A stretch of DNA of 64,000 nucleotides, taken from positions 1,440,001-1,504,000 of the forward strand of contig OY969767.1 of the NCBI GenBank assembly GCA_963702895.1, read 5' to 3'. The position numbers and the translations under genes are program-made. This document shows positions 54,866-61,203 of this stretch, piece after piece. Position 1 is the first letter of the stretch, and each line of letters starts with the position of its first letter. This DNA comes from an uncultured Elusimicrobia bacterium. GTDB taxonomy: Bacteria; Elusimicrobiota; Elusimicrobia; 2-01-FULL-59-12. The notes beneath the pieces were generated by a model. It searched no databases and had not been told where the DNA came from. It worked only from the letters and a program-made list of their open reading frames with translations.

Positions 54866-54887
54866 GCAAGACGCCAATCTTTAAGAC

Positions 54888-55042
54888 GTTACCCCGGCGA
54901 AAGCCGGCCCTCCACACATCCGGCGGGCCGTCCGCCCTGCCGTGTGGCGGACGCGGTCTATCATGTTACGACGTAAATGATGGATCCGACACACTACAGT
55001 CGGACGCCTGTTGTGTGGCGTCCCGGCTTTCGCCGGGATGAC
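54888..55042. repeat. Composite palindromic element between convergent genes (possible terminator)
   Basis: GTTACCCCGGCGAAAGCCGG...CCGGCTTTCGCCGGGATGAC with two nested hairpin inserts. Confidence 0.85.
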
Positions 55043-55099
55043 GGACTAAAAAGTGCACGATGCTCAGACGATAGGATAAACTCAAGTGAAGATTCCCGG

Positions 55100-56820: not shown

Positions 56821-56875
56821 AGCCGGCCCTCCACACATCCGGCGCCCGCCACACGTCTAGCGAGGCCTCGCCGGA
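56821..56875. repeat. Remnant of the composite palindromic element
   Basis: AGCCGGCCCTCCACACATCCGGCG identical to a segment at about 54902. Confidence 0.7.
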
Positions 56876-56878
56876 TCA

Positions 56879-57241
56879 TCAGAAAATCCGGACACGGCGC
56901 TTGTGAAAATCAATCGTGAGCCGGCGCTCTTCCAATAAGCGTGTCCCAATCAAAATATCTTTTGCATGCGAAGCGACGGTATCGACTTCCTGGGTTCTCC
57001 CAAACCATCGAATTCGTCCGACAAATACTTTTTCTCGAACCACATCGCCGGTCGCAATCTCGTACGACTCATATCCGATCCAACGCCAACCCAATCGTTG
57101 AATCAGAGATTCAGGCAGACTTAACGTGCCGTTGAATCCTGTGTCGATGACGGCGGAGTGAGATTGAGAACGATTCGTGGAAAACAGAAGGAAGATTCGG
57201 ACGACGGGCTCACCACGGGAATTAACATGCCCTTTGAGCAT
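56879..57241 (-). CDS. Clan AA single-domain aspartic protease (AF_0612-like)
   Basis: AVIDTGFNG and LIGTRLL motifs. Confidence 0.85.
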   Translation of the reverse strand: MLKGHVNSRGEPVVRIFLLFSTNRSQSHSAVIDTGFNGTLSLPESLIQRLGWRWIGYESYEIATGDVVREKVFVGRIRWFGRTQEVDTVASHAKDILIGTRLLEERRLTIDFHKRRVRIF

Positions 57242-57484
57242 CTACCCGTGTCGGCGCAATTTATGAACGGCAGGATAGCCGATCCGGAAAAAGTCAAATA
57301 CTTTGTTTGGAAATGCCGTCATCGCGTGCCGGGCGGCTTCCAGGACATCCTTTCCCAAAAAGTACTGTCCAGAATCGGGCTCGACAGCGACAACCTGTCC
57401 TTTATGATCGGCGAGCAGGCGCCGTTCCACTTGGCGGAAGAGTTTAGAGGCTTTTCGAAATTTCTGGAGTTCTTTTTTGCTCAC
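57242..57484 (-). CDS. Small hypothetical protein partnered with the aspartic protease
   Basis: GQVVAVEPDSGQYFLG..FFRIG pattern; stop abuts protease start. Confidence 0.7.
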   Translation of the reverse strand: MSKKELQKFRKASKLFRQVERRLLADHKGQVVAVEPDSGQYFLGKDVLEAARHAMTAFPNKVFDFFRIGYPAVHKLRRHG

Positions 57485-57681: not shown

Positions 57682-57769
57682 AGCCGGGGATCGGATTTCC
57701 CGCCACTACACCGTTGGCGGGTCCGCCAGAGCTTCGGTGGCGGAGAACCGACGACCACCTGTTTACGAA
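57682..57769 (-). pseudogene. tRNA-Thr(CGU) 3' half with 46-bp T-loop insertion (att-like remnant)
   Basis: TTCGTAA ACAGG TGGTC GTCGG TTC[46 nt]AAAT CCGAT CCCCGGC T GCA. Confidence 0.85.
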
Positions 57770-57856
57770 TTCTTTGGGACGCCACTCACGATCATTTGGA
57801 ATCCAATTGATTACAAATATGAAAACCTAAATTCTCGGTTTTCCGCCGCAGCCAGG

Positions 57857-57968
57857 ATTCCAAGATTCTTCCAACATTACTCCAAGATTTGGTCGACGTC
57901 ATTCCAAGAAAAGCCTGATCTTGTACTACAAAAGAAATCCAAGATCATCGGATACAGATTCCAAGTTA
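57857..57968 (+). repeat. Six direct repeats of ATTCCAAGATT-like 11-mer
   Basis: Copies at 57857, 57868, 57879, 57901, 57936, 57958. Confidence 0.75.
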
Positions 57969-58511
57969 TTGTCGGAGTGTCATCCCGGATTGATCGGCGC
58001 GGACAAACATCCCCATCACATCCAAATCGGAGACGTTTAAATCTTCATCCTTTGGCGGAAGGGTCTGGGTTCCGAGAGGCCGCGTATAGGACAGAATGTA
58101 GTTCAAGAATTCGCCTGAAGGACTCCGCCATTGTCCTGACCACGTCAGGATTACGAGTTGTCTGTTATTAGCGGAAACAATTTTCCGTTTCCATTTCCAC
58201 AATGTGACCGGCGGTTCTTTTGATTTAACTTGGTCTGTCTTAAGCGCCTGCCACCTGTCCCGCGCCAGCGCATTGGACAACTCTGCGATCACATCAGAGG
58301 CCGGATAGCTCGCCTTCACTCTATAAATCACCTGATCAGGTTGCCATCCATTTGGATATTGGCACTCCAAGTACTCGACGTCGGTGGCTCCCTTGACAGC
58401 GAAAAGCGATTTCGGATGATCTTGCGGGTTGGGATGGCATTCCAGAGCGTACGTCAGTTGAATGAGCGCGGTGAGGAGAGCAGCGGCAAGAAGACAGCCG
58501 ATTCGACTCAT
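57966..58511 (-). CDS. Secreted hypothetical protein
   Basis: Signal peptide, 181 aa, lower GC, GGAGG RBS. Confidence 0.7.
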   Translation of the reverse strand: MSRIGCLLAAALLTALIQLTYALECHPNPQDHPKSLFAVKGATDVEYLECQYPNGWQPDQVIYRVKASYPASDVIAELSNALARDRWQALKTDQVKSKEPPVTLWKWKRKIVSANNRQLVILTWSGQWRSPSGEFLNYILSYTRPLGTQTLPPKDEDLNVSDLDVMGMFVRADQSGMTLRQ

Positions 58512-58661
58512 TATTCCGGCCTCCTATTCCTAGAAGAGGTATTCCAAGGCCATTGCGTCGTAATTGTCACATCGGTTTCGACATACGTTGCGCTAGCCAC
58601 GGGAGACGCCTCAAATTCTGGGAAATTTTGCTGATAAGCGCCACTTCCCACAAAAAAATTA

Positions 58662-58744
58662 AGCCGGGGAAGGGACTCCCCGCCACTGAGTCTCTGGCGT
58701 TCCCGCCAATGCCGTAGTGGCGGGGAACCCACGACCTTCTCTTT
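58662..58744 (-). pseudogene. Second tRNA-Thr-like 3' half with 46-bp T-loop insertion
   Basis: AA AGAGA AGGTC GTGGG TTC[46 nt]GAGT CCCTT CCCCGGC T. Confidence 0.78.
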
Positions 58745-58823: not shown

Positions 58824-58896
58824 AGCCGAGGATCGGACTTGAACCGACAACATCTCCCTTACGAAGGGAGTGCTCTACCAATTGAGCTACCTCGGC
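58824..58896 (-). tRNA. tRNA-Thr(CGU), CCA not encoded
   Basis: GCCGAGG TA GCTC AATTGGTA GAGC A CTCCC TTCGTAA GGGAG ATGTT GTCGG TTCAAGT CCGAT CCTCGGC T; full cloverleaf. Confidence 0.97.
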
Positions 58897-59128: not shown

Positions 59129-59425
59129 TTATCGCCGAGCAGATTCCCAGCGCTTAGCGGCCAGCGTAAAAGCATGGCGATGTTTTGACCAATCATGCAA
59201 GATCGCTGGATCAAAATCAGCGCCATTGGGCCACACAAGCGTGTGAACTTCGCGGTCAAGGCGAACTCGATTAAAGACCCTTGGATTTTTTAATGGCCCG
59301 TAAAGGTCCCCAGCCAGAACAGGCTGGAAATCAATTGTTCGCTTGCATTGATCATCGAACGATATTTCCAAGGTGTAAGGACCTGCCTTTTTAAACGATC
59401 GAATTTTATAAATGGAATGTTTCAT
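59129..59425 (-). CDS. DUF2442 putative antitoxin
   Basis: L.ISFDD, WPNGADFDP; downstream of DUF4160 gene. Confidence 0.85.
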   Translation of the reverse strand: MKHSIYKIRSFKKAGPYTLEISFDDQCKRTIDFQPVLAGDLYGPLKNPRVFNRVRLDREVHTLVWPNGADFDPAILHDWSKHRHAFTLAAKRWESARR

Positions 59426-59645
59426 AATCGCCTCACTTAAGCGGTTTAATAGGCTCTGGCTTCCGCCCAGCTTGCAATCTCTGCCAGTCCAGCATCAATT
59501 CTTTCCTATGAAGTTCTGCCCATGCCTCGACTAACCGACGCTGTCTTTTTGGGAGAGAGCCGGATATTGTTTCAATCGGATCAATCCCATAAACAGCCAC
59601 GTGCTCCTGATAATAGGCGTGAAAATGTGCTTTATGGTGTCGACC

Positions 59646-60917
59646 CACTGGTGTCCGGTAAAAGTTAGCCGAAGCTTAGCCATAGCTGAGGCTCCATAGT
59701 TCGAACTTTTGAAAGATTCTTTTCGGGCATACGCAATAGATCGATGAGACTGAGCCGGTCGAGAAGGGTATTCTGAACCAACCGGTGCAGCAAGAACAGC
59801 GAACGCTGGAATCGTGTCTGGAACTTGATGTAGGCCAGGAGCAGGAAATAGCACAAGGCCACCCAGATTTGGGTAAAGACGGCATTTTTGGAAGTGCCGA
59901 GGAACGTTTTGATTTTGAGATGCTGCTTGAGCCACTTGAAGAACAGCTCGATCTGCCAACGGGCCTTATAGATTTGGGCAATGGTGAAAGCGGCCAGTTT
60001 GAAGTTATTGGTCATAAACTGGTAAGTGATGGCGGTGTCGGCATCGTAGTAGCCGATGAGTCGTAAAGGTTTCTTGTATTTCGTCTTGGTGCGTGGGCCT
60101 GTAAGCTCAATGGTGCGATCGTACAACAGGCCGTTTTTTAAGGGAATTTCTTGCTGTCCGGTGATGCGGCAGGTGAGGTTGTCTTTGGCACGGGTGACGA
60201 AGAAAGAGCCGAGATCGTCGATCTGACGGTACCAGCCGTAATCCATGTAGCCGCGGTCGAAGACATAGATGCTGTCCGGTTCTAAGGGAAAAAGACGTTT
60301 GGCGGCATGGTCGAAGCACTTTCCATCGGTGATGACGGCAAAGGAAGGGATTTGGCCACGCAAGTCCAGTTGGCAATGCAGTTTGATCGCTCCTTTGGCC
60401 TGTTTAAAGGTGGCCCAAGGGAAAAGGTTCAGGCACAGTTCCATGTTCGTGGAATCGAAGCAGGTCACTTTGTGTTTAAAACGGAACTGATGCTTAGGCG
60501 CGATGGCTTGGCACCGATCCAGCAGGTGATAGAAGAGCTTTTCCATGATGCGCCAGTCGCGCCCAGCGTTAGCGTCAGCCAGGGTAGAACGTTTCACTGG
60601 CGGCAGCCCCAAGTGATAGAGCTTGGGTTGTTGCGTGCCTAAAGCCGTCTGGATGTCACGCAGGCTTGTTTTACCGCTGGCCTGAGCATAGAGGAGTGTC
60701 GTGAGCTGGTTCCAAGTCGAGAATTTTTTAACGTAGGCGTCGCCGCCGAAGCCAGAAACGGCTTGGTCGAACTGATGTCGTGGTAAAAGGAGAAGCAGTT
60801 GGTTCATTATGGTGTTAGAATGCATGAGCGAAATCCTCCCTCGGACAGAATGGTTTGCTTGGTCGCAATCATTCTACCGAACCAGGGGGATTTCGCATTT
60901 TTAACCGGACACGAGTG
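59646..60917 (-). mobile_element. Complete IS4-family insertion sequence (1272 bp)
   Basis: IRs CACTGGTGTCCGGT / CACTCGTGTCCGGT; 9-bp TSD GTGTCGACC at 59637-59645 and 60918-60926. Confidence 0.95.
59665..60825 (-). CDS. IS4-family DDE transposase (DUF4372 N-terminus)
   Basis: DST, FDRGY, YKARWQIELFFKWLKQ (YREK signature). Confidence 0.96.
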   Translation of the reverse strand: MHSNTIMNQLLLLLPRHQFDQAVSGFGGDAYVKKFSTWNQLTTLLYAQASGKTSLRDIQTALGTQQPKLYHLGLPPVKRSTLADANAGRDWRIMEKLFYHLLDRCQAIAPKHQFRFKHKVTCFDSTNMELCLNLFPWATFKQAKGAIKLHCQLDLRGQIPSFAVITDGKCFDHAAKRLFPLEPDSIYVFDRGYMDYGWYRQIDDLGSFFVTRAKDNLTCRITGQQEIPLKNGLLYDRTIELTGPRTKTKYKKPLRLIGYYDADTAITYQFMTNNFKLAAFTIAQIYKARWQIELFFKWLKQHLKIKTFLGTSKNAVFTQIWVALCYFLLLAYIKFQTRFQRSLFLLHRLVQNTLLDRLSLIDLLRMPEKNLSKVRTMEPQLWLSFG

Positions 60918-61165
60918 GTGTCGACCACCAAACTCCGCGAACATGCGGATAATAATGCCGAAAAAGCGGCTCAGCTCAGGCACGGGAACATTCTACTACT
61001 TCGAACAAACCTAGCTCGGCTAGCATGACGTTTCAAGACACATTGCTTTCGATAAATACTGGACTGACTTCGCTATTCCTCTGAATTTCCAAGGATATCC
61101 CGGAATTTCGGTACTTTTCGCGAAAACTCGCATTGATTATCAAACACTTTGTTTCGAGCAACGTT

Positions 61166-61203
61166 TTTCAAAACAGCGGCTCCACCAACCGAGCTAGCCC
61201 GGC
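61166..61203 (-). pseudogene. Degenerate tRNA-Thr-like 5' half
   Basis: GCCGGGC TA GCTC GGTTGGTG GAGC C GCTGT TTTGAAA, then no 3' half. Confidence 0.7.

Follow-up and report, generated by a model that had tools for sequence, protein, structure and literature searches.

What does a 46-nucleotide (nt) double hairpin do inside two broken tRNA-Thr pieces, at the same T-loop position but in opposite orientations, next to an intact tRNA-Thr gene that is free of it? The question is raised by a locus of an uncultured Elusimicrobia bacterium (GTDB lineage 2-01-FULL-59-12). The DNA that we analyzed, here called the window, is a stretch of 64,000 nt (assembly GCA_963702895.1, contig OY969767.1, positions 1,440,001 to 1,504,000), and coordinates are those of the window unless a genome handle precedes them. 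The best explanation, to which we give a probability of roughly 0.55, is that the double hairpin belongs to a dispersed repeat family, family A, which would serve as the signal of a small GIY-YIG nuclease, be joined into new sites by the host and, at this locus, have hit two dead tRNA pieces separately.

Copy 1 of the repeat (57699..57744, plus strand, 46 nt, 45.1 bits with the family profile) interrupts r1 (57682..57769, minus strand), the 3' half of a tRNA-Thr(CGT) allele running from the anticodon loop to the discriminator, and is reversed relative to that piece. Copy 2 (58679..58724, minus strand, 46 nt, 42.5 bits) interrupts r2 (58662..58737, minus strand), a 3' piece of another tRNA-Thr allele from the variable loop to the discriminator, and is forward relative to it. 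Each insert is placed in the T-arm after TTC and before RA, and is followed by the 3' strand of the acceptor stem and the discriminator. The intact tRNA-Thr(CGT) lies at 58824..58896 on the same strand as r1 and r2; it is identical in the relatives G003 and G005 and is the only gene in the locus matched by Rfam.

A preliminary description of this DNA had reported the two 46-nt inserts, their positions and their identity of 37/46 in opposite orientations, insertion between C56 and R57 without duplicated bases at either site, a canonical T-loop after removal and an empty intact gene, and all of this was reproduced. In the same orientation the identity is 30/46, and removal leaves a T-loop of 7 nt. 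It had also drawn each insert as two hairpins of the type CGCCA-N9-TGGCG. The double hairpin stands, with the correction that the second hairpin of copy 2 has two terminal mismatches and that copy 2 folds better as a single long hairpin.

When the inserts were excised in place, ARAGORN at a relaxed threshold called neither r1 nor r2 as a tRNA (0/2). Both are fragments, not whole genes. We found that r1 shares 40/42 positions with the G007 intact allele and 33/42 with the resident gene, and that r2 shares 28/30 with the G006 intact allele and 23/30 with the resident gene; judged by these identities, neither is a copy of the resident tRNA. The T-stems of r1 and r2 differ by one compensated pair.

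The two inserts are members of a larger family. A relaxed double-hairpin pattern matched 43 times in the 2.72-Mb genome, compared with 0, 0 and 2 times in three order-5 Markov simulations. A family profile built from 26 strict copies gave 76 matches at 8 bits or more, with the reversed genome reaching at most 9.5 bits, and the matches at 14 bits or more include 40 full two-hairpin copies genome-wide, the two locus inserts among them. Family A is a dispersed, gene-less DNA repeat of 44 to 48 nt with CGCC/GGCG cores, and the earlier inference of a non-autonomous mini-element that inserted at these two sites without target duplication was borne out. A sister family B, with 8-nt loops, is about equally common in the genome. 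Among species-representative genomes the exact pattern was found in 42 stretches, 37 from Elusimicrobiota and 5 from Omnitrophota; viral contigs held 0 exact matches, no Rfam family matches the repeat, and a search for expression listed no RNA data set that carries it. Three DNA runs contained short pieces only, with no joint across the inserts. Separately, two family-A copies lie inside a structured leader at G000:C1:1759113-1759234, which by eye looks like a riboswitch.

The conserved form of the repeat is two short local hairpins side by side, as the covariation supports. In 35 aligned copies, 99.3% of 420 cells of the two-hairpin fold were paired, with 31 compensatory cells, and 0/500 shuffles scored as high; the terminal-repeat fold had 0 compensatory cells. 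Relatedness inflates such compensatory counts, and the contrast between the folds was made on the same alignment. In copies whose two stems differ, local pairing was kept in 13/15 and 28/29 and terminal pairing in 0. A miniature inverted-repeat transposable element (MITE) with a terminal-repeat fold was ruled out by this covariation, together with the lack of target duplication at the two sites. Energy minimization preferred the long fold for RNA and for copy 2, and the two-hairpin fold for copy 1 as DNA.

The short spacer between the hairpins follows a rule. In 32 of the 42 spacer-bearing double hairpins of the genome (a count with many tandem duplicates, most with the self-complementary spacer CG), the spacer is the reverse complement of one or two bases that occur as a duplicate on either flank. 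In a metagenome scan set up to leave out CG, 28 loci were found. The 20 whose stems are both perfect (17 distinct) share the order CA-hairpin-TG-hairpin-CA, and the other 8 have a different register and do not follow the rule. Such a pattern would be expected for a closed dumbbell crossing over at a core of 0 to 2 nt, or for fold-back capping of both ends of a break.

The second of these possibilities belongs to an explanation without any free element. A nick or break in a tRNA loop would be healed by a short donor tract copied onto each end; each end would fold back and copy its arm, along with as many as two bases of the flank, and the capped ends would join, leaving a repair scar written in place. 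The second hairpin is indeed roughly an inverted copy of the first, stems vary by paired changes only, and the spacer tracks the target dinucleotide. tRNA homology, moreover, extends 15 nt or less on one side in 27/30 sites, and in other genomes the first base of the element correlates with its flank (T after T in 22/30, C after G in 16/16). However, the flank correlation was not seen in this genome (T after T in 3/11) and is confounded by genome; the duplicated cores are only CG and CA, plus one 1-nt type, so that two fixed subfamilies fit equally well. The loop sequences also stay family-specific across two phyla and across loci of 32 to 58% GC. We consider a repair scar unlikely.

We then mapped where the repeat inserts. 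Sixteen of the 40 copies lie within 200 nt of an intact tRNA gene (0.7% at random) and 18 within 1.2 kb; about half of the copies are without a tRNA link. Sites were mapped by script on the neighboring tRNA gene, and five tandem duplicates were dropped. By position, the 15 distinct tRNA-linked sites of family A divide into T-loop (5), D-arm (5), anticodon arm (3, of which one is doubtful) and variable region or T-stem (2). Three further T-loop-like sites, recognized by eye, did not pass the mapping script. T-loop-only targeting is ruled out for family A by its sites elsewhere in the tRNA. The distinct tRNA-linked sites of family B, by comparison, are in the T-loop in 15/15. Off tRNA, no preference for hairpin loops was seen (4/20 here and 5/42 in other genomes versus 11% at random), in a folding test that is insensitive and scores only 6/17 of the tRNA-fragment sites. 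The T-arm specificity proposed in the preliminary description, which had named insertion without T-loop or stem-loop preference as evidence against itself, therefore fails in part on its own terms. A T-loop-anchored pattern search (9/41 genomes) imposes the site, and we did not use it as evidence of preference. What the sites do share is a base constraint: spacer-less copies have no A at their 5' side and no T at their 3' side in 28/28 distinct cases here (p about 1e-6) and in 36/37 elsewhere.

Near tRNA genes there are 34 tRNA 3'-end matches. In front of the match stands a hairpin pair in 23 of them, the match's own empty T-loop in 2 and other sequence in 9; one of the 9 is visibly a filled site, and several of the 34 are tandem duplicates. 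None of the 40 copies lies inside an intact tRNA gene. After we excised 84 hairpin pairs in script, the genome had 50 tRNA calls instead of 48, and both new calls are incomplete tRNAs; among 197 other loci, 114 excisions added 4 calls, none of them a clean full-length gene. All 44 anticodon types have an empty gene in this genome. Since the excisions restore no complete tRNA and every anticodon type has an empty gene, the repeat survives only in dispensable pieces, as had been suggested, and does not act as an intron; the full-length tRNA carrying the insert for which the preliminary description had called was not found. We propose that only dead pieces keep the repeat because insertions in working tRNA genes are purged.

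These results bear directly on the idea of an RNA-level element, either a tiny intron spliced from the precursor tRNA or a functional tRNA-like RNA. The precise position in a tRNA loop and the compensatory stems would suit such an element. The excisions speak against it, as do the occurrence of both orientations (16 forward, 10 reverse and 4 ambiguous among 30 T-loop-like sites) and the lack of an Rfam family matching the repeat, and we regard it as highly improbable.

tRNA homology ends 15 nt or less from the insert on one side in 27/30 sites, a measure that allele divergence and further inserts shorten. This suggests that many fragments were made in the same event as the insertion, and r1 looks like a secondary hit. 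The preliminary description had suggested that the repeat might lock islands in place. At an integrase-bearing island near 2.517 Mb (G000:C1:2516586-2517503), the tRNA-Ser 3' piece next to the integrase gene is empty, and a more distal piece carries three hairpin-pair inserts. At L033 and L034 (in G006 and G001), tRNA-Ser(GGA) alleles have exchanged roles: the one that the repeat has broken in one genome is intact in the other. A third mark is seen in tRNA fragments whose entire anticodon arm has given way to a single short hairpin (G000:C1:1652300-1652700 and the GIY-YIG-centered loci L136, L141, L142 and L146), often just upstream of a nuclease start codon.

How did the two pieces at our locus arise? 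In five family relatives (G006 to G010) a different intact Thr(CGT) allele occupies this locus, and r1 corresponds to its 3' half; in G009 that allele lies directly between the genes for an MscS-type protein and UPF0164, which also bound the region here. Alleles nearer to the resident Thr(CGT) are found in other families. The 5' half of the other tRNA-Thr(CGT) allele, in degenerate form and extending as far as the anticodon loop, is found at 61166..61203 (minus strand); it is 31/38 identical to the G006 allele, is the sole non-gene match among 4 genome-wide matches with 7 or fewer mismatches, and is the probable partner of r1. When it was joined in script to the excised r1, the product was called tRNA-Thr(cgt) at the relaxed threshold. 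A shorter second look-alike of the start of the 5' half lies 183 nt away at 61004-61025, beside an insertion sequence (repeat D17).

Integrative elements are said to prefer the anticodon loop for crossover (Williams 2002). By its sequence, r1 looks like an att-type (attachment-site) remnant: it starts at the crossover position, and its partner half lies across the cargo. The suggestion that the tRNA pieces are att remnants can be kept on these grounds for r1 only, and the islet has no integrase; none of the 4 PF00589 (tyrosine recombinase) matches falls within the window. Like the attR remnants of integrative elements, r1 has its start at the anticodon loop and marks one edge of a small islet, with an empty version in G008; unlike them, the islet is without an integrase, the pieces are foreign or older alleles, and the accessible part of the source describes no hairpin inserts in such fragments (PMC9897764). 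The non-coding stretch before r1 (57770..57960, minus strand), a possible att arm, shows weak similarity to the sequence that precedes the orthologous pieces of G005 and G008; blastn found 25 matching nt in G005 (E 0.003) and no match in G008, which faintly hints at conserved att arms.

The piece orthologous to r1 is empty in G008, where it lies 1.2 kb from the intact gene. In G005 the piece is filled by family A at the identical position, oriented opposite to the copy in r1, and in G003 a half copy is left. We infer that the tRNA pieces arose first and were then hit separately. Two separate insertions are likelier than one insertion followed by duplication of the piece and micro-inversion of the insert, because r1 and r2 match two different intact alleles and the orthologous piece is empty in one relative; the preliminary description had offered the latter as its alternative. 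That course is very unlikely for the two locus copies, even though they share position and isotype, lie 980 nt apart, are 37/46 identical and are near-palindromic, so that the insert could invert in place. An identity of 37/46 is ordinary within family A, being reached by 21/78 pairs, and copies 1 and 2 each match another copy elsewhere at 38/46; both orientations occur at T-loop sites in general, and the compensated T-stem pair separates r1 from r2.

If the repeat encodes nothing, what could move it? The best candidate is probably a single-domain GIY-YIG nuclease of about 80 amino acids (aa) encoded elsewhere in the genome. The genome has ten PF01541 (GIY-YIG) matches, six of which adjoin tRNA genes; such genes lie beside tRNA-Ala (a nuclease of 79 aa), tRNA-Asn and an Ile/Ala pair. 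At three loci (L072, L081 and L095) the layout is a 5' tRNA-Ser piece whose anticodon loop contains a family-A copy, a gap of about 15 nt, and then a GIY-YIG frame of 84 to 98 aa (84 aa in L081) that runs into an intact tRNA-Ser. Across the nuclease group a tRNA lies within 250 nt at 22/26 loci, and a whole or half family-A copy was found at 9/26 loci versus 1/20 loci of Y1_Tnp (Fisher p 0.03). Among 301 genomes of the phylum, the only one in which the link was analyzed, the nuclease group (E 1e-8) was found in 25, the repeat pattern in 12 and both in 11. The group is therefore present in 11/12 repeat-bearing genomes versus 14/289 others, and the twelfth has a weaker match with another query. 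Within families f15, f21 and f29 the overlap of repeat and nuclease has a p of about 2e-4.

In a rough tree of 32 rows, in which the bootstrap did not converge and whose rows do not include SsnA, the tRNA-adjacent nucleases are set apart from the two SRM-flanked genes of this genome with 100/97 support. Their nearest relatives among solved structures are UPF0213 proteins; a single-sequence fold of the nuclease was of low confidence (pLDDT 71.7, pTM 0.58) and was not used. The two SRM-flanked genes, at G000:C1:543339-543560 and 554279-554500, are small GIY-YIG genes with NTS/SRM-like flanks, probable Ssn homologues that coexist with the tRNA-linked group. At L054 (G000:C1:1813100-1814010), a tRNA-Asn is preceded by a near-complete copy that contains three hairpin pairs; downstream lie two GIY-YIG genes in tandem, each of which ends in a T-loop-filled 3' piece.

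The preliminary description had instead looked to an HUH (RAYT/Y1) transposase or a tyrosine recombinase, as for the repetitive extragenic palindromic (REP) sequences and their doublets (REPINs). An inverted hairpin doublet without target duplication fits such a mover; the repeat contains a GTAG tetranucleotide, REP dimers with 1 to 2 bp between partners are described in the part of the REP paper that was available (PMC3733652), and Y1_Tnp genes occur in 14/14 repeat-bearing genomes. However, no double hairpin was found within 1.5 kb at any of the 20 Y1_Tnp loci inspected (one had a half copy), and this genome, with its 40 copies, shows a single Y1 fragment of 89 aa and 23.3 bits without flanking repeats. 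The GTAG lies inside the loop and not at the element end as in GTAG REPs, and none of the 4 tyrosine recombinase genes is in this locus. Both movers are accordingly disfavored, and we consider this origin quite unlikely.

We infer that the repeat moves, that the nuclease nicks near it and that host repair joins it. In the proposed sequence of events, the repeat would be the single-strand recognition and end signal of the nuclease of about 80 aa from the tRNA-fragment cassettes elsewhere in the genome. SsnA cleaves single-stranded DNA just outside a hairpin repeat, at a distance of a few nucleotides (Chenal et al. 2025, PMC11893778); by analogy, this nuclease may nick single-stranded DNA near the hairpin. 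Host repair or recombination would then join the pair of hairpins, in the shape of a dumbbell, to a new target. A short stretch of tRNA would often be duplicated along with it, which would leave an intact gene beside a wreck. At this locus, another Thr(CGT) allele, taken as the older one, would have been split at the anticodon loop around a 3.4-kb islet with a replacement tRNA, its halves being 61166-61203 (5') and r1 (3'); r1 and the unrelated r2 would then have been hit separately at the same T-loop position.

Several observations weigh against a nuclease-signaled repeat. The nuclease gene is absent at this locus and lies within 1.2 kb at only 3/42 repeat-centered loci. A whole family-A copy is 250 nt or less from only 4/26 nuclease genes, and some of these repeat the loci of the L072/L081/L095 type, the query included. 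The pairing with family A is not exclusive, because nuclease genes are also flanked by sister hairpin families, and the Y1_Tnp genes accompany the repeat in every genome tested as well. The co-occurrence statistics overstate the link, because the genomes are related. Outside this genome, the spacer rule is kept by 3/6 spacer-bearing family-A copies and broken by the other 3/6. We saw no excised form and no empty/filled polymorphism within a population, and the nuclease is known here by its sequence. Finally, a nuclease alone cannot join strands. A further extension, in which a covalently closed DNA dumbbell of about 45 nt would constitute a new transposable class driven by a GIY-YIG nuclease and host repair, with no transposase or recombinase, and the cassettes would kill resident tRNAs, install foreign alleles and drive tRNA turnover, is in our view doubtful.

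Among known systems, family A works like the Ssn/SRM pair or a REPIN, looks like a mitochondrial double-hairpin element (DHE), and fails the defining tests for SRM, GTAG/CGTC REP, MITE and intron. In the available portion of the Ssn paper (PMC11893778), small single-domain GIY-YIG genes lie beside a dispersed hairpin repeat, the authors hypothesize mobility, and the word "tRNA" occurs 0 times. The corresponding trait, a single-domain GIY-YIG gene of about 90 aa linked to the repeat, was found at L081, L072 and L095 and not at this locus. SRMs as described there are single hairpins with an oriented flank (PMC11893778), whereas family A is a hairpin pair tied to tRNA fragments. The NTS/SRM single-hairpin consensus did not fit family A, a two-hairpin unit with CGCC/GGCG cores; NTS-like flanks occur at other genes of this genome and, judged by eye against the NTS consensus, differ from family A.

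Like REPs and REPINs, family A is a short GC-rich hairpin doublet in tens of copies, with subfamilies that have alternative complementary stem residues and with no target duplication here. Unlike them, it is without a terminal GTAG/CGTC tag (as defined in the accessible part of PMC3733652), the tetranucleotide falling in the first loop at alignment columns 8 to 11, and it flanks 0/20 of the Y1/RAYT genes fetched, apart from the half copy. The 4 mentions of tRNA found in that part of the REP paper concern protein genes, not tRNA genes (PMC3733652).

The DHEs of fungal mitochondria are reportedly traced to Paquin et al. 2000. As described in the part of PMC10085805 that was available, they are GC-rich pairs of adjacent hairpins, potentially mobile, with no enzyme of their own, and lie in intergenic DNA and inside structural RNA genes, as family A does in form. 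They differ in being organellar, and no link to tRNA fragments or nuclease cassettes is given for them in that part (PMC10085805); the comparison with family A is one of descriptions. We found no description of such a repeat in the open-access literature, where the supplementary tables of the Ssn paper could list such motifs.

The rest of the locus is cargo and insertion sequence. The 3.4 kb between the 5' half and r1 contain, besides the resident tRNA and r2, an insertion sequence, a gene pair and an orphan open reading frame (ORF). The ORF, of 181 aa (57966..58511, minus strand), lies between r2 and r1; it has no Pfam or NCBIfam family, its Atlas look-alikes at 0.90 are hypothetical proteins, and no match points to a nuclease or recombinase. 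The DUF4160 and DUF2442 pair (59129..59648, minus strand) lies between the 5' half and the intact tRNA. The insertion sequence, unrelated to the repeat, encodes a DDE_Tnp_1/DUF4372 transposase (59665..60825, minus strand), and its 7 genome copies, 99.7 to 100% identical, indicate that it is recent and was recently active. Just past r1, at 56879-57484 (minus strand), are an 80-aa ORF and a clan AA aspartic protease-like ORF (TIGR03698, below cut-off), cargo that is not in the G005 locus. Between the methyltransferase and UPF0164 genes, 54875-55055 forms nested hairpins, an SRM/NTS-like inverted pair enclosing family-B-like hairpins, and 24 nt of this structure are repeated exactly at 56821-56844.

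How hairpin repeats without an enzyme spread, among them REPINs, SRMs and the mitochondrial DHEs, is largely unresolved. With family A, the insertion sites are precise and lie in a conserved target, an ortholog without the insert is available, and the spacer rule predicts what shape the intermediate would have; the candidate enzyme, of 84 aa, is easy to express. If the nuclease acts on the repeat, the Ssn principle would extend to a second GIY-YIG group and yield new small single-strand nucleases. Family A also explains the interrupted fragments around most tRNA genes of such genomes, which confuse the annotation of tRNAs and islands.
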